Made by a program: the position numbers and the translations under genes. Shown piece after piece: positions 2,152 through 9,450 of a stretch of 64,000 bases of DNA. The stretch spans positions 3,168,001 through 3,232,000 of the forward strand of contig CAVQMM010000001.1 of assembly GCA_963713615.1 (NCBI GenBank). Reading direction: 5' to 3'. The notes under the pieces were generated by a model. It was given only the letters and a program-made list of their open reading frames with translations. It was not told the origin of the DNA and ran no database searches. The stretch comes from an uncultured Chlamydiae bacterium. GTDB lineage: Bacteria; Chlamydiota; Chlamydiia; Chlamydiales; JAJFMA01. The number at the start of each line of letters is the position of its first letter. Within the stretch, counting starts at the first letter, position 1.

Positions 2152-3153
2152 ATGTTTTCGAAATTTTTAGATCCCAAAAATGATGTAGCCTTTAAGAAAA
2201 TATTCGGTACGGAAAAGAATAAAGACATCCTGATTCATTTCCTCAATGATATGATCACCTTTAAAACAAAGAAGCCTATCAAGGAGGTTTCTTTCTTGAA
2301 GACAATTCAAGATCCTGAGATTGCCGCAAAAAAAACAAGCATTGTGGATATTCTCTGCGAAGATGAAAATGGAAACCAGTACATCGTGGAGATGCAAGTT
2401 GCCAAAGAAAAAGGCTTTGAAAAAAGAGCTCAATATTATGCCTCCAAGGCCTATAGCTCCCAAGCATGCGTTACGGGGGCCTATCACGATCTTAACGAAG
2501 TGGTGTTTTTAGCAATCACTGACTTTGTCATGTTTCCACAAAAGAAGTCATTTAAATCAGATCATGTGATTTTAGATAGAGAAAGCTTGGAAAATGATCT
2601 CAAGGATTTTTCTTTTACATTTTTAGAGCTTCCAAAATTTAACAAATCGCTTGACCATTTGGGCAATATTGTTGATAAATGGACGTATTTTTTCAAAAAT
2701 GCGGAAGAGACCTCAGAAGAGGATCTTAGTAAAATCATCGGTCATGATCCAATTATAGCGAGGGCCTATAAAGAATTGAGCCGTTTTTCATGGAATGAAG
2801 CGGAATTATTAACTTATAGCCAGGCAGAAAAATACGAGGGGGCTTATCAGGCCTCTTTAGCACAAAAATTTGATGAAGGAGAAAAGAAGGGGATAGAAAA
2901 AGGTCTTCAGGAAGGAGAAAAGAAGGGGATAGAAAAAGGTCTTCAGGAAGGAGAAAAGAAGGGGATAGAAAAAGGTCTTCAGGAAGGAGAAAAGAAGGGG
3001 ATAGAAAAGGGTATTCAGGAGGGGGAAAAGAAGGCACAATTGTTGATAGCAGCTAATCTGTTGGGAAGGAATTTTTCGCCTGAACAGGTTTGTGAATTCA
3101 CAGGTTTAGAGATGGATGAATTGCCATTCTCTGATTACATTTGGACGGATTAG
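2152..3153 (+). CDS. Rpn-family recombination-promoting nuclease / PD-(D/E)XK putative transposase
   Basis: LDPKNDVAFKKIFG, VDILC, IVEMQV, RAQYY, FLELPKF, EGEKKG repeats and C-terminal FTGL motif. Confidence 0.9.
   Translation: MFSKFLDPKNDVAFKKIFGTEKNKDILIHFLNDMITFKTKKPIKEVSFLKTIQDPEIAAKKTSIVDILCEDENGNQYIVEMQVAKEKGFEKRAQYYASKAYSSQACVTGAYHDLNEVVFLAITDFVMFPQKKSFKSDHVILDRESLENDLKDFSFTFLELPKFNKSLDHLGNIVDKWTYFFKNAEETSEEDLSKIIGHDPIIARAYKELSRFSWNEAELLTYSQAEKYEGAYQASLAQKFDEGEKKGIEKGLQEGEKKGIEKGLQEGEKKGIEKGLQEGEKKGIEKGIQEGEKKAQLLIAANLLGRNFSPEQVCEFTGLEMDELPFSDYIWTD
2875..3033 (+). repeat. 36-bp tandem repeat (about 4.4 copies) encoding EGEKKGIEKGLQ
   Basis: GAAGGAGAAAAGAAGGGGATAGAAAAAGGTCTTCAG occurs three times exactly, plus one variant and a partial copy. 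Confidence 0.95.
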
Positions 3154-4494: not shown

Positions 4495-4779
4495 CCCGAT
4501 AGTGTCGCAAGGCACGACACTCGCGATGCAAACGGTTCGCTTGCTTTTAGGAGTAACACGGATGTACACGGATCTAGGAGGATAGGATGGAATGGAATTG
4601 AATTCGTGTCGATCCATTCCATCCTAAAACCATTTTTATCGTTTTAGAATAATGAACTAGTTTTTTCCATCCTACTCCTCCTAAATCCTCCTAGATCCGT
4701 GTGCATCCGTGTTACTCCTAGAAAGGCCTCACGAACCGTTTGCATCACGAGTGTCGTGCCTTGCGACGACGCTATCGGG
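4495..4779. repeat. Long palindromic element, family D (GAGTAACACGGATGCACACGGATCTAGGAGG arms)
   Basis: About 90-bp imperfect inverted arms; same motif recurs at 21010-21216 and 43194-43688. Confidence 0.85.
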
Positions 4780-5703
4780 AAAGCAGGATCGCCGAGAAGG
4801 TGGGCGTTCAGGAGTGAGTATTCCTTGCAACACCCATTCCTGGAACCAGGAATGCAAGTTTTTAGAGGCTACTTCGACGAAGGCTCCGCCTCGCTTTTCC
4901 AGCCAGTTGCAGGCTGCTGATGCGGAGCAACCTTTATTGAATAGGCGTAGCAGACGAAACTCTCCGGCTGCAAGTTCCTTCCATTCGATGTGGTTGTTGT
5001 GATTTCTAAATAGAATAAAATAAAACCTGCGACCTTGCTCCAAATCAGGAAAGGGACGTTCCAGCCAATGATCGCCATCTTCAGGCTTGATAAATTCTGT
5101 TCGAAAATTGAACAGGTGATAGGGCCAATCGAACAGACGAACGTGCGGTTGAAGATAGAGCCGAAGATTTAACAAGGCTCCTAGAGAGGTCGTATCAGTG
5201 ACCTGTGGTAGTGAGACCGATGGCATCTGGCGCGCAAAAAAGGCATCATTGTAGGCATGGTCGATTGATGCCGCATCGATGATTAAGGGACGATCCGTAT
5301 CCCAATAGGTCTCTTTCAGAAATCTTGGAAGCATCGAACTTAAAAAGGACAATGACCAGTGTTCTGGTCGGTAGCGGCAGATGTAGGGAAAACCGAACCG
5401 TTGATTGAAATCTGTGTAACCAAAAAGACGCGTGAGTAGAGGTAAGACCTCATGGAGAAGATTAAGCAGCCGCCACCAATACTGTTGGTTATAGATTTCC
5501 ATACGTTCGTGAGACTGCAGGGTAGGGCTGGGAGAGATATATTCGGCGGCCTCATCCTCCATCGGGTTTCCCTTTGGAGACAGTGGCATCATGCGATTGT
5601 CTAGATCAATAGGACGTTCGATGATACTGCCAAACCAAAGTTGTGTCAGCTTCAACTCTTCAGGGACTAGGGAGTCATACATCTGATTGGGGGCTTTCTG
5701 CAT
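4729..5703 (-). CDS. DUF2063 MNIO partner protein (BufC/HvfC-like)
   Basis: ERMEIYNQQYWWRL, LTRLFG, A-x-IDHAY motifs; 5 bp downstream of the DUF692 gene. Confidence 0.85.
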   Translation of the reverse strand: MQKAPNQMYDSLVPEELKLTQLWFGSIIERPIDLDNRMMPLSPKGNPMEDEAAEYISPSPTLQSHERMEIYNQQYWWRLLNLLHEVLPLLTRLFGYTDFNQRFGFPYICRYRPEHWSLSFLSSMLPRFLKETYWDTDRPLIIDAASIDHAYNDAFFARQMPSVSLPQVTDTTSLGALLNLRLYLQPHVRLFDWPYHLFNFRTEFIKPEDGDHWLERPFPDLEQGRRFYFILFRNHNNHIEWKELAAGEFRLLRLFNKGCSASAACNWLEKRGGAFVEVASKNLHSWFQEWVLQGILTPERPPSRRSCFPDSVVARHDTRDANGS

Positions 5704-5708
5704 AAGGT

Positions 5709-6542
5709 TCAGGCCACAACGAGGCTTTGCTGGAACTGCTTAGCTTTCAGCGCTTCATCCCAAGTTTCCTGGAAGGTAATGAAATTGTCGTCCCACTCTA
5801 GCAGGGTTGAGACCCCGCGCGTCAGAGGATAGACCTCTCCATAAATTGCCCATACCTCATCCCTGACATAGGTGTCGTGAGTATCCAAAACATAGGCACC
5901 CCTGTCGGTATGACCTGCGAGGTGTATTTGAAGAACACGATCCATTGGGAGGTTGCGATAATAGTCTTTGGGATCGAAACCATGGTTGCGGCTAGAGACA
6001 TAGATGTTATTGACGTCGAGCATCATATAGATATTGGCTTTCTCAATGACGGCGGAATAGAACTCCCACTCGGCCATTTCATCATGGCGAAAGGTAACGT
6101 ATGATGAAAGGTTTTCTAAGGCAAAGGGAAGCTCGAGGTAGTCTTGGACGATACGTGCACGTTCTGCAACGTAATCGATGACCTTCTGGGTATAAGGAAG
6201 TGGGAGTAAGTCGTGGTAGTGAGCTCCTGGAAGACGTCCCCAACAGAGATGATCAGATATCCATGGTGTTTTGGTTCTCTTGGCGAGAGCTTTGACACGC
6301 TTGAGGTATTCGAAGTCCAGTGGATTGGGGCTTCCGATGGCTAATGAGACGCCATGCTGTACTACAGGATATCGCTCCAAGATACGGTCGAGATTTTCTA
6401 GAGCCTTTCCGCCATCGACGAGGAAGTTTTCCGTGATAATTTCAAACCAATCGATATTGGGTTGATGAGTGAAAATATCTTGAAGATGAGGGATGCGGAG
6501 GCCGATGCCAATGCCAAGGTTTGGTGGAAATTGTGCTGTCAT
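5709..6542 (-). CDS. DUF692 multinuclear non-heme iron oxidative enzyme (MNIO; BufB/MbnB family)
   Basis: GIGLR, FEIITENF, HGVSL, SDHLCW, DLLPLP, LENLSSY, LDVNNIYV, IHLAGH, DTH, LLEWD motifs. Confidence 0.96.
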   Translation of the reverse strand: MTAQFPPNLGIGIGLRIPHLQDIFTHQPNIDWFEIITENFLVDGGKALENLDRILERYPVVQHGVSLAIGSPNPLDFEYLKRVKALAKRTKTPWISDHLCWGRLPGAHYHDLLPLPYTQKVIDYVAERARIVQDYLELPFALENLSSYVTFRHDEMAEWEFYSAVIEKANIYMMLDVNNIYVSSRNHGFDPKDYYRNLPMDRVLQIHLAGHTDRGAYVLDTHDTYVRDEVWAIYGEVYPLTRGVSTLLEWDDNFITFQETWDEALKAKQFQQSLVVA

Positions 6543-6576
6543 AGGAGAAGCCTGGTACAGTATCCAGATGCAAACA

Positions 6577-6602
6577 ACGGCCGCCCCCGAAGGGGCGGCC
6601 GT
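6577..6602 (-). terminator. GC-rich hairpin with UUCG tetraloop between precursor and MNIO genes
   Basis: Minus strand ACGGCCGCCCC-TTCG-GGGGCGGCCGT followed by TGTTTG (weak U tract). Confidence 0.75.
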
Positions 6603-6644
6603 AAGGAGTTCAACGATCTTGTTCGATCCAAGCCGAGGCTTAGA

Positions 6645-8446
6645 CTATCTGTTCTTGTTGCTATTGAACGGATCCTTGTTGATCATATGAGTGCGCTTAT
6701 CATGCATAGCAGCGACGTGCACGGCAAGATTTTTATCGGTATATGCACCAGCTGCTGTATTCTTGCAGCCGCCTTTACCTGCGCAATCGTTTTTTGGGGG
6801 GTTGCTGCAGGAGTTGAGTCCTTTGCAGCTATTTGTCCCCTTACATGTTTGGTTGGCTAGCTCAAGAGCTAATGTTTGGCCTTCTGGACTCAGGGAATTC
6901 CACTCTGCTTTGCCGGACTTGTTCAATAGGGTAACAAGTGTTTGTCTATCCAACTGAGGTGTTGCGGCAACATTATCGTTAAGGCTTAGAAAACCGCCAC
7001 CGCCCTGTGAAGCGCTAGCGTTGTTCTTCTTGCCATTATTTTTTCCAGAATTATTTTGGCCAGAGTTGCTCTTGGTACCACTATTGGTATTGTTGCTTTT
7101 GCCAGCATTGGTTGGTGCTATAGAATCGCTATCAGCAGTGACGCCACCTCTACGTGTTGTAGGGGCTCCCCACTGATTGTCATCCCAGGTAATCTGTCCA
7201 CCAGAACCTCCACCCTGGCTGCTGTTACCAGCACCTTTGGAGGTGTTGCCTTTTGAGCTGTTACCCTTGGTACTATTGCCACCTTGTTGAGGTGCGCTGT
7301 CATCGCCCCAGGCCAACTTACCACCGGCAGCGCCTCCGCCAGCGCCAGTACCTCCGCCAGAGCTTCCGCCTTGGCCGCTGTTGCCAGCGCCAGAGCTTCC
7401 ACCTTGGCCGCTGTTGCCAGTGCTTCCGCCAGTGCTGCCGCTAAAGCTTCCGCCTTGGCTGCTGTTGCCAGCGCCCTTGGTCGTGTTGCCTTTGCTGGCG
7501 TTGCCACTTTGTTGAGGTGCGCTGTCATCGCCCCACGCCCACTGACCGCCGGCACCTTTGTTGGTGCTGCCGCTATTATTTTTCCGGAATTATTTTTTCC
7601 GGAATTGTTGCTGCTGTTACCGGCATCGGCAAATTTAGGGGGGTTAGTGTTGCCTTTGGAGCTATTGTTGCCCTTGGTATTGTTGCCGCCTTGCTGAGGT
7701 GCAGTGTCATCGCCCCAGGATAGCTGACCTGGTGTCTTAGTGGCATTTGTTGAAGCACCACTGCTATTTTTGGTTCCAGCACCCCTTACATTCTGCCCGC
7801 CGGTTTGACCAGGATTAGCGCCTTGGCCGCCGCCGCCATTGCCTGAGCCACCAGTACCGGAGCCGTTGCAGCCTGCGCTATTATTGCAGCCAGCTACATT
7901 GCGGTTCGTGTTGTTGGAGCGGTTATTGCGGTTGGCATTAGGGCTAGCTTGTGCACCCAGAGAGCCTTGGTCGTCGGATAGGGAAACTTTACCGCCGGAA
8001 TTGGATTTTCCAGTGCCTTTAGCGCCGCCGGGAGGACGAGCTCCGCTATCGCTTCTAGGGCCGCTCTGGCCGTTACAACCTGAGTTGCCGCCTCTGCCAT
8101 TGTTGTAATTGTCATAACCACCGCCACGGTTGTCATAGCCGCCATTATTGTCATAGCCATTACCGCCACCGCCGCCACCACAGCCGCCTTGGCAGCCGCT
8201 GCCCCAACGGCCATGGCTAGCATCTTCCCCAACGCTAGGACTAGCGATGAGACGAGCTAGAAGTTGGCCTTCTTCGTCCAAGCTACGGAATAGTTGTTGA
8301 TCTTCCTGGCTTAGAGAGCTGAGGAAATCCTGCTCTGCCACACTGCTTGTTCCATAATCGGTCGCCGCAAGCTCGCCTTGGTTCGCCAACATGATTCCAC
8401 TGGCTAACCCGAGCAGGGCGAGTTTCTTCAGGTCTCTTTTCTTCAT
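6645..8446 (-). CDS. Large secreted Gly/Asn/Ser-rich, Cys-containing MNIO precursor (bufferin-like C-terminus), split by a 1-bp frameshift at 7579-7583
   Basis: Signal peptide MKKRDLKKLALLGLASGIMLA; adding one A to the A5 run joins ORFs 7118-8446 and 6645-7316 into 600 aa; C-terminal CKGTNSCKGLNSCSNPPKNDCAGKGGCK. Confidence 0.8.
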
Positions 8447-8966
8447 GGAATGACTCCTTGCATGGTTGTTGAAAGGGTAACCCCTAGGTTGCCCGTGTGC
8501 TTCATTTTAGAGCGCTGCCACCATAGGTTGAGCATAATCGTTGTAAGTGTGTTGTACTCAAAAAATTAATGGGAATGCAAGAAAAAAATAAAAAGATCAG
8601 AGATTCAGGCGGATGGACTAAAGGATAAAAGCGACATAAAGGACATAAAGGACGTCTGCAATTACCTCCAAAAGACTTAGGAAGTAAATTTCTACAGGTC
8701 CTTTAGAGGTAATTGCAGAAGTCCGATTTTCCGAATTCAATTTCCTGAAAATCGGATGCCGGTGAAGAGAGAGCCATTCCCTTCCCAGGCCCGAAGGGTC
8801 GATATTGCAACAGGCCAGGGCATCGCCCTGGTATACGCCAAGAGAGGATATCGCAGTCTGAAAGACTGCCACAAGACGCTGGTTTGCATAGACCATTTAT
8901 GCATGCCTTTTATCGCAGTCCTTCAGACTGCGAAATCCCTTCCTGGCCTATACCAGGGCGATGCCC

Positions 8967-9275
8967 CATAGGCCTCAACCTAACAGGTCTTTTGAGCTTA
9001 TATCTCAATGACTTAGGACTTCACAATCGTATCTCGGCGCGCAGCGCTTTGGAGTGCGGTCGCTTGCGACCGCTTTTCGTTCCTTGGGACGGCAATGCTA
9101 AACGGCATTGTATGGATTCGTCGAAGGCTGCATGTACTAACTATTTTACCCTTAGGGAATTATAGTAATGCCGTTGCACACGACCGTCGCAAGGAACCCA
9201 AAGCGGTCGCAAGCGACCGCACTCCAAAGCGCTGCGCGCCGAGATACGATTGTTAGGCTTAGGTTGAGGCCTATG
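8967..9275. mobile_element. MITE with CATAGGCCTCAACCTAA termini and an 11-bp TSD
   Basis: Terminal inverted repeats (TIRs) at 8967 and 9275; GGGCGATGCCC duplicated at 8956-8966 and 9276-9286. Confidence 0.8.
9021..9253. repeat. REP-like palindrome family A (GCGCTTTGGAGTGCG...CGCACTCCAAAGCGC)
   Basis: Long inverted arms; copies at 14754, 23098 and 38387. Confidence 0.85.
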
Positions 9276-9450
9276 GGGCGATGCCCTGGCCTGTTGCAAT
9301 ATCGACCCTTCGGGCCTGGGAAGTGATAAAAGCCTGTGTCCACACCAGATAGTGCCATGCTGCCTGAGCTCTCTAGAATCGCCTACTAGCCAAAAAAGAT
9401 AACCTTTTTTACCCAAGAATCGATTCTCAAGGGCTCAAATAATTTTGCAA

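Follow-up and report, generated by a model that had tools for sequence, protein, structure and literature searches.

What does a chlamydia make with an MNIO (DUF692) enzyme whose neighbouring gene appears to encode a protein of some 600 residues? The question is raised by a 64,000-nucleotide stretch from an uncultured Chlamydiae bacterium (assembly GCA_963713615.1, contig CAVQMM010000001.1, positions 3,168,001 to 3,232,000; hereafter the window). An initial annotation, made from the letters alone, had described three co-oriented genes there in the order precursor, DUF692, DUF2063, and had proposed a very long, exported, largely disordered and Cys-bearing substrate of an MNIO/DUF2063 cluster. 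The three genes are present in this order on the minus strand (Table 1), and the analysis presented here supports the proposal. We consider the operon to be an intact MNIO cluster, whose enzyme pair likely makes 5-thiooxazoles on a likely Sec-exported protein of 600 residues that would likely bind copper in the elementary body (EB), in its periplasm or its envelope; we put the probability of this reading at roughly 60%. It is carried by the intact operon, the type of the enzyme, the fold of its partner, the linkage of precursor family and enzyme across genomes, and the finding of the gene whole in peat RNA contigs.

Enzyme, partner and class of the cluster

The DUF692 protein is the sole PF05114 match in the genome (340 bits). 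It scored above the cut-off of the BufB model NF050167 (313.9 versus 310), below that of the HvfB model NF003818 (246 versus 360), and far under those of the ApyH, ChrH and MbnB models. In the alignment with the solved homologue 3BWW the His, Asp, Glu and Asn motifs of the metal site are conserved and intact; where 3BWW reads ERDF this protein reads EWDD, with Asp252 at the position of the Phe. In Cys-Lys MNIOs an Asp is found where Lys-Cys MNIOs have a Phe beside the catalytic Asp, and the second N-terminal Arg is lost (PMC13097082). This Arg is missing here too, which corresponds to the Cys-Lys signature of that study, and the Asp after the catalytic Asp is paired with Cys-Lys motifs in the precursor, in which Cys535, Cys541 and Cys561 are each followed by Lys. 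The EWDD Asp was mapped by inference onto FonB 249/250, with the ERDF of 3BWW as intermediate. Among chlamydial orthologues most have EWDD as well, and a distant one, beside an EGKCG-type precursor (L061), reads ERDF. Judged by these features the enzyme is of the Buf2/Cys-Lys type rather than of the HvfB type.

The partner matched PF09836 (33.1 bits versus a cut-off of 27.2) and, weakly, NGO1945_C/HvfC-RRE; its AlphaFold2 model (pLDDT 91.8) matched NGO1945/3DEE at E 8.4e-7, and also TglI. In its BufB-group enzyme, its DUF2063-RRE partner directly downstream and its Cys-bearing precursor gene directly upstream, the cluster shows the features of the MNIO-PME1 (captophorin/bufferin-type) class, of which all characterised systems install thiooxazoles and generally bind copper (PMC13097082).

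With bufferin 2 (BufA2-BufB2-BufC2 of Caulobacter vibrioides; Buf_6/12Cys; Cys-Lys captophorins) the cluster shares the A-B-C gene order, a likely Sec-type signal peptide, the BufB-type MNIO with the Cys-Lys Asp, the DUF2063-RRE partner, a C-x5-C-x5-C...C-x5-C loop, and the lack of an adjoining sigma factor or DoxX gene. It differs from bufferin 2 in precursor length (600 residues versus a core of 61, and 51-367 in that family), in a loop that lies inside a partly duplicated helical module found in this analysis solely in chlamydial records, in the loss of CysVI, in a probably disordered linker of 410 residues with extra Cys, and in relatives that are expressed by developmental stage. Hidden Markov model searches, proposed initially as a check, placed DUF692 and DUF2063 above their cut-offs, but the BufA2 model NF050166 matched the precursor far below its cut-off of 60 bits (22.2 bits; the loop 20-22 bits, E 1.2e-4), and the precursor has five Cys in the loop, not six or twelve, and no CysI-CysVI pair. 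We take the cluster to work like bufferin 2, yet its precursor falls outside the BufA2 family by model score and Cys count. The initial remark that no DoxX or ECF sigma gene is adjacent is right for the neighbourhood, but the genome has two DoxX genes at other places (C1:1228153-1228401 and C1:3432922-3433164), and the absence of a sigma gene is the norm for Buf2 clusters; the Caulobacter buf2 cluster is likewise described without DoxX.

Other known systems were also compared. Oxazolin, fontiphorin and gonophorin (HvfABC, FonABC, NgoABC) are also exported, flexible, multi-site MNIO-PME1 substrates, and many chlamydial relatives resemble them in G/S-C-G repeats in the N-terminal region; the present locus differs in the lack of an EGKCG pentamer, in the score below the HvfB cut-off and in the Asp, instead of Phe, after the catalytic Asp. 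MNIO-linked TIGR04222 proteins (70-643 residues) are, unlike this precursor, integral to the membrane and paired with PME type 2 partners, and neither precursor half matched this family (NCBIfam). Neither half had any Pfam match, PF10048 of Buf1 (DUF2282) included; Buf1 genes often adjoin DoxX and ECF sigma genes, and the neighbours here are tatD and rsmB. OmcA and OmcB resemble the likely exported, Cys-bearing precursor, and the late expression of its relatives, in being exported, Cys-bearing and late in the cycle, but here the Cys density is low (10 of 600) and there are dedicated modifying enzymes; the precursor had no Pfam or NCBIfam match to their families (Chlam_OMP/DUF11).

The precursor gene and its transcript

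In the assembly the precursor gene changes frame within an A-run at about 7579-7584. Among the RNA contigs compared, from five peat metatranscriptome runs, two cover this site (run X2 and run X3, each of a different study). Each has an additional base there but no further difference from the window, and neither agrees with the assembly (0/2). With the extra base the gene has 601 codons and encodes 600 residues. Intact precursor genes are found in congeners (431 and 477 residues) and, from a matching start, in a genome of the same family (347 residues). DNA run X4 gave only short foreign matches. Because both spanning RNA contigs restore the 600-residue frame, an assembly error is much the likeliest explanation, and the repaired length of about 600 residues given initially is borne out. 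One could argue that the frameshift is real, by decay or slippage in this strain, and that no 600-residue product is made, since the assembly itself shows the shift and the evidence across the site is RNA contigs, not source-sample DNA; the agreement of both contigs, the homopolymer at the site and the intact genes of the congeners make this extremely unlikely.

Upstream of the precursor a TTGCA(T/A)-17/18-TA(C/A)AA arrangement was found in 6/6 compared loci of this family, which we take to resemble a housekeeping sigma promoter, a type unlike the SigF control of Caulobacter. A consensus scan for promoters and terminators missed it and gave counts no higher than in shuffles. The precursor stop codon is followed by a strong hairpin (z -3.84), and a related one with a CGGCCGC stem was present in 4/4 family loci folded. 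The RNA contigs start at 8527 and 8533 (two runs) and end at 6657-6692 (four runs), and one further contig reads through into the MNIO gene; the ends hint, weakly, that the precursor message is for the most part monocistronic. The depth and cover of the precursor contigs, above those of other genes in 20 kb, were not counted as evidence of high expression, because this region had been used to select the runs and a ranking of genes cannot be drawn from contigs.

A helical carrier, a Cys loop and a long linker

By eye, the protein starts with a likely signal peptide (basic N-region, hydrophobic core, LxA-type end), a start that is conserved across the family. All Cys motifs listed initially, five N-proximal and five C-terminal, were found, at residues 85, 89, 124, 187 and 193 and at 535, 541, 547, 555 and 561. 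The long Gly/Asn/Ser spacer is present as well, but it comprises about 410 rather than 430 residues and has the first five Cys inside it. Over residues 79-484 Gly, Asn and Ser make up 57% and large hydrophobics 6%, and from this composition the linker is probably disordered. The initial annotation had overlooked two features, a duplicated helical module and six linker copies of the motif GQ-[LIVW]-[SAT]-[LW]-x-D, four of them of WGDD type and two looser ones at residues 153 and 486. The motif occurs one to three times in 7/8 related precursors, as compared with an expectation of <=0.02 per shuffled linker, a contrast that is inflated because the pattern was composed with these sequences in view. 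Some KGxNS units of the linker resemble the Cys loop by eye, for which low complexity could account.

For the C-terminal region AlphaFold2 gave a model of mean pLDDT 69, in which three helices are confident (H7-13, H16-24 and H27-37; pLDDT 76-89), the loop has low confidence and a fourth helix follows. The loop has the spacing C-x5-C-x5-C-x7-C-x5-C. Since paralogues without the loop fuse helix 3 directly to helix 4, we read it as inserted into a helical carrier. Profile A2, which represents the C-terminal region, also matches the N-terminal copy of the module (E 2.6e-4 here; in three relatives, down to 3.7e-9, another 4.2e-8), and hhalign aligned the N-terminal copies with A2 at a probability of 98.1. 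Searches with the C-terminal module gave no Foldseek match in the PDB with E<=0.001, no PDB sequence match, a best Z of 3.6 in VIA-align (none >=5 among 48,161 chains) and ESM Atlas hits all below 0.9; with a model of pLDDT 69 they indicate neither a new nor a known fold. In the A2 alignment 39/40 members matched NF050166, weakly (best E 8.4e-12), and MerC-Buf2 fusions appeared at the tail of the profile search, by which matches the loop is homologous to BufA2. Caulobacter BufA2 shows -4 Da on its four central Cys and likely a disulfide between CysI and CysVI; since CysVI is a Gly here, the modifiable positions would be kept and the clamp lost.

Distribution and variation of the precursor family

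The module was found in 60/250 genomes scored across the phylum and the MNIO in 79/251, of which 25 had no module match. In 49 of the 60 module genomes the module lies directly upstream of the MNIO gene (<=1.5 kb), in 5 the two are on different contigs, and in 6 no MNIO was found (one strong module match, in a 370-contig assembly, and five weak ones). DUF692 loci consistently without such a gene upstream, which had been named beforehand as speaking against the proposal, were therefore not what we found. In the family with genomes of 1.0-1.3 Mb neither was found (module 0/29, MNIO 0/30). A scan of genome contigs with the single sequence yielded no relatives; the alignment-based scan yielded 33 loci, of which 27 have an MNIO within the retrieved stretch and 13 have two or more module-bearing genes. 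Nearly all related loci with titles belong to Chlamydiota (Parachlamydiaceae, Waddliaceae, Chlamydiales), next to several labelled 'uncultured bacterium' and one 'Verrucomicrobia'. Most of the 15 loci studied in detail carry other signal-peptide, low-complexity genes upstream, and in three of the 15 (L037, L049, L052) no evident precursor adjoins.

A profile search of 1.84 billion representatives gave 246 matches. Among the best 150 of these, 106 have a signal-like start (median 245 residues, range 132-477); 36 of the 106 are above 300 residues and 10 above 367. The precursor of 600 residues is the longest family member found and stands at the long extreme of a chlamydia-wide family, so that its unusual length, claimed initially, is real but not a one-off. 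Across the best 150 the number of linker Cys grows with precursor length (median 0 to 8.5); family linker Cys are mostly in G/S-C-G/S/N contexts, with five residues as the commonest spacing, as in the loop. Loops with five Cys are found in 88 of the 150, with six in 56 and with other numbers in 6; in the locus set (47 genes) 6 have five-Cys and 33 six-Cys loops. The N-terminal module copy is clear in about 8 of the best 150 matches.

Could the precursor be a multi-core one, cut after hydrophobic-hydrophobic-Ala/Ser motifs into separate small modified peptides, possibly in the inclusion? Many homologues (P0015, P0055, P0080, L089, L090) are arrays of motif-led short units with a C-x5-C pair, a motif of this type also closes helix 3 of the module, and the 13/33 loci with several module-bearing genes point in the same direction. 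Here, however, Cys-free spacers follow four of the six motifs, the operon has no protease or transporter gene, and a stricter motif test on other families gave 4/14 hits; we regard such processing as quite unlikely.

Several loci deserve a separate mention. The orthologous precursor of genome G004 (L102:1414-2457) has a His/Gly-rich linker, many C-x5-C pairs and 19 Cys in 347 residues, and is the most metal-binding-looking member of the family. Upstream of an EWDD MNIO in genome G005 (L039; G005:C9:20400-30000) lie two signal-peptide genes in tandem, both of low complexity, which encode 3 and 0 Cys; they have the same GQLA-type motifs, and no module match and no Buf2-like loop was found in this genome. 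Because an EWDD enzyme is here combined with such upstream genes and no module match, the locus suggests that G/S-C-G sites can be substrates and that such proteins may also have a Cys-independent role. Signal-peptide proteins with, by eye, repeated helical module-like units are encoded directly upstream of the MNIO gene in L050 and L053 and by the second gene upstream in L047; they are almost Cys-free and could be Cys-free carriers or chaperones. Genome G023 (L055-L059) has five MNIO genes, one with an internal TGA, and several beside signal-peptide peptides of about 70 residues with 2-3 Cys. In L052 (G013:C6:153600-163500) the MNIO gene follows a different gene set, including a 341-residue enzyme-like gene, and the opposite strand carries a 102-residue NHLP-like open reading frame (ORF) and a radical-SAM-like ORF (by eye), possibly of another type of peptide that is made on the ribosome and modified after translation (RiPP).

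Expression of matching clusters in cultured relatives

A connection to development was found through two cultured relatives. The 154-residue family member P0329 is WP_006341517.1 of Parachlamydia acanthamoebae, whose accession adjoins those of the MNIO and DUF2063 proteins listed for this species, with zero precursors, by Antoine et al. In strain UV7 the order rsmB-DUF2063-DUF692-RS00605-RS00610 matches that of the window, and the two genes upstream of DUF692 rise from 24 h to EBs by 1.0-1.3 log units in vertical and 3.2-4.3 in horizontal lines (PMC7474615). For RS00610 the values given there are 7.2-7.7 at 24 h and, in EBs, 8.5-8.9 (vertical) and 11.8-11.9 (horizontal), well above the enzyme genes; rsmB falls over the same interval and omcB rises more. 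In Protochlamydia amoebophila the genes pc1862-pc1864, upstream of DUF692, are in class 'late II', like omcA and omcB, and go up about 3 log2 units toward the extracellular stage; the EB proteome contains pc1863 and pc1864, and DUF692 and DUF2063 go up about 2.5, with DUF2063 classed as early I (PMC5451489). Signal peptides were predicted for all three of pc1862-pc1864, which were placed in one cluster and called beta-barrel proteins (PMC2811131). The passages on these genes in either expression study describe no copper treatment, and the word is absent from the main text of PMC5451489; the Waddlia transcriptome supplements had no entry matching the terms looked for. Taken together, the matching clusters of two cultured relatives appear to rise late in the cycle or in EBs.

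These data bring in the main rival explanation, in which the protein, once modified, would have a structural place in the EB envelope or periplasm, as a disordered self-associating scaffold with the WGDD-type motifs as stickers, modified or free Cys as cross-links, and incidental metal binding. That the positional counterparts are late II like omcA and omcB and occur in the EB proteome agrees with it, as do the Cys-free aromatic/acidic motifs conserved within a fast-changing linker, the Cys-free family-type gene directly upstream of one MNIO, and the reported aggregation of fontiphorin with copper. Such a structural part would, on the other hand, be present in just 60/250 genomes and in 0/29 of the family with 1.0-1.3 Mb genomes, and would vary from 132 to 600 residues in length. 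Moreover, thiooxazole formation takes Cys out of ordinary disulfide pairing. We consider a scaffold alone unlikely; it and the metal sink can both hold.

A probable metal sink in elementary bodies

Copper defence and an envelope role, both named initially, are the two leading functions. In the infectious stage the precursor probably serves, exported and with thiooxazoles on it, as a sink for metal, and the cluster is likely to arm this stage against metal poisoning by the host cell. In the mechanism that we propose, transcription would start at the sigma66-type promoter, with the hairpin yielding more precursor than enzyme message, and expression would, as in the cultured relatives, be tied to the late or EB stage and not to a copper-sensing ECF sigma factor. 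In the cytoplasm the enzyme pair would bind the precursor, perhaps via the three-helix module, a copy of which stands ahead of each Cys cluster. Oxidation would then take place at the central Cys of the C-terminal loop (-4 Da each, with absorbance at about 305 nm), as expected from family membership, and, less certainly, at some of the five G/S-C-G/N/Q linker Cys as well. After export and signal cleavage the thiol-bearing rings would bind Cu(I) on a disordered tether. The metal buffered would be that encountered in soil water or inside the phagosome of a protist; ATP7A is described in connection with metal delivery to phagosomes (PMC5758549), and the amoeba argument for bufferins was made in the bufferin paper (PMC12452194).

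Several points weigh against this explanation. Modification and metal binding of the chlamydial members are predictions from sequence. About 290 linker residues (194-484) are without any Cys and the gene beside the MNIO in L039 has none at all, for which reasons part of the precursor's role cannot be thiooxazole chemistry. The linker Cys lack the following Lys that a Cys-Lys enzyme may prefer, CysVI is missing, and the genome already encodes a CopA-type P1B ATPase elsewhere (C1:1645323-1647443; CPC, YN and MxxSS motifs). The link to the expression tables (PUV_RS00610, pc1862-pc1864) is one of gene order and accession adjacency, so that homology is positional; the higher level in horizontally passaged EBs is common to omcB and rsmB in the published values and hence unspecific; and late expression fits a structural role too.

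The product might also be modified and exported but buffer oxidants or Zn, Hg or Ag instead of copper. MNIO-PME1 clusters have been tied to oxidative stress plus metals, MerC-Buf fusions exist, and the linker of G004 is His-rich; characterised thiooxazole products, however, are generally described as binding copper, and we find this option very unlikely. A more far-reaching idea, tentative and in our view doubtful, is that environmental chlamydiae have recast a bufferin stress system as a developmental one, with the lineage-specific helical module as a portable recognition tag on long disordered proteins, which would be thiooxazole-decorated and pre-loaded in the EB envelope as a metal-trapping, possibly metal-cross-linked mesh. 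If true, OmcA and OmcB would be joined by a third class of EB envelope protein based on Cys, and MNIO chemistry would be applied to a structural protein.

Should the metal sink itself prove true, protist symbionts would hold a ready-made defence against metal poisoning by their hosts, and MNIO enzymes would modify 600-residue proteins at sites hundreds of residues apart, which would be useful for engineering metal-binding polypeptides.

Relation to published MNIO substrates

The initial statement that known precursors are short was overstated. For instance, PMC12452194 gives lengths of 51-367 residues for Buf2, up to 835 for Buf1, up to 506 for EGKCG-type precursors and up to 643 for TIGR04222 proteins with Ser/Gly-rich disordered Cys regions. 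Length alone is thus not new, though 600 residues exceed the Buf2 maximum stated there. Chlamydiae are never mentioned in the main text of that paper, and among the rows listed in its table 5/8 Parachlamydiales genomes have an MNIO and 0/5 a recognised precursor. A preprint mentions conserved 'RiPP-like' clusters in Amoebachlamydiales, in the part available without naming them. Our literature search (with subscription papers and unreadable supplements outside its scope) found no paper on this precursor family, nor any account of a helical carrier module or of its duplication, of the disordered linker with Cys or of a link to the EB stage. The present analysis supplies a substrate family for environmental chlamydial MNIO clusters that the table of this 2025 survey lists as precursor-less, and ties these clusters to published EB expression data.

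Features and neighbourhood of the operon

Table 1. Features of the operon, with positions in the window
Feature	Position	Strand	Basis or remark
DUF2063 + RRE partner, PME type 1	4729..5703	-	PF09836; model versus 3DEE; last codons in dispersed repeat
MNIO (DUF692), BufB-type, Cys-Lys subtype	5709..6542	-	PF05114, NF050167, 3BWW alignment
GC-rich hairpin between precursor and MNIO	6577..6602	-	z -3.84; likely attenuator or RNase stop
Precursor gene, 600 residues, 10 Cys	6645..8446	-	Frame-shifted in assembly; congeners intact
Closing basic helix (DKNLAV..KR)	6678..6737	-	Alignment, AlphaFold2, paralogues
Buf2-like Cys loop, CysI-CysV; Gly at CysVI position	6765..6845	-	NF050166; alignment
C-terminal three-helix module copy, residues 500-532	6852..6950	-	AlphaFold2; alignment A2
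Gly/Asn/Ser-rich linker, residues 79 to ~490	6978..8212	-	Composition; internal DNA repeats D1-D5
Four Cys-free WGDD-type repeats	7170..7726 (7688-7726, 7506-7544, 7281-7319, 7170-7196)	-	Motif
Short A-run, assembly one base short	about 7578..7584	-	2/2 spanning RNA contigs have extra base
Linker Cys187, 193	7868-7888	-	Positions
Linker Cys85, 89, 124	8075-8194	-	Positions
N-terminal three-helix module copy, residues ~38-70	8237..8335	-	Profile A2
Likely Sec signal peptide, residues 1 to ~28, no lipobox Cys	8363..8446	-	By eye
Shine-Dalgarno-like AAGGAG	8454..8459	-	Sequence; GGAG kept in 6/6 loci
Likely sigma66/sigma70-type promoter	8551..8580	-	TTGCA(T/A) -35 at 8575-8580, 17-18 nt spacer, TA(C/A)AA -10 at 8551-8556

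The neighbours of the operon are tatD and rsmB (Pfam, NCBIfam), with rsmB 3' of the DUF2063 gene; rsmB is present in 25/57 related loci retrieved. We do not take the adjacency to dsbD and tatD for a functional link, since tatD is present in just 6/57 retrieved loci, all from this family. Immediately 5' of the promoter (window 8778-9326) lies a nested palindromic element of about 550 bp, which has 273 matches across the genome by BLAST, many of them almost complete and at 92-95% identity, as well as a tandem array near C1:2273500-2277800, and is like a miniature inverted-repeat transposable element (MITE) or a repetitive extragenic palindrome (REP). A second dispersed inverted-repeat family (167 matches) is found at 4504-4767, between the operon and rsmB, and one of its arms overlaps the DUF2063 ORF and provides its final codons. 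Finally, a gene of the Rpn/PD-(D/E)XK nuclease family with C-terminal tandem repeats is inserted between sctJ and rsmB (window 2152-3153).

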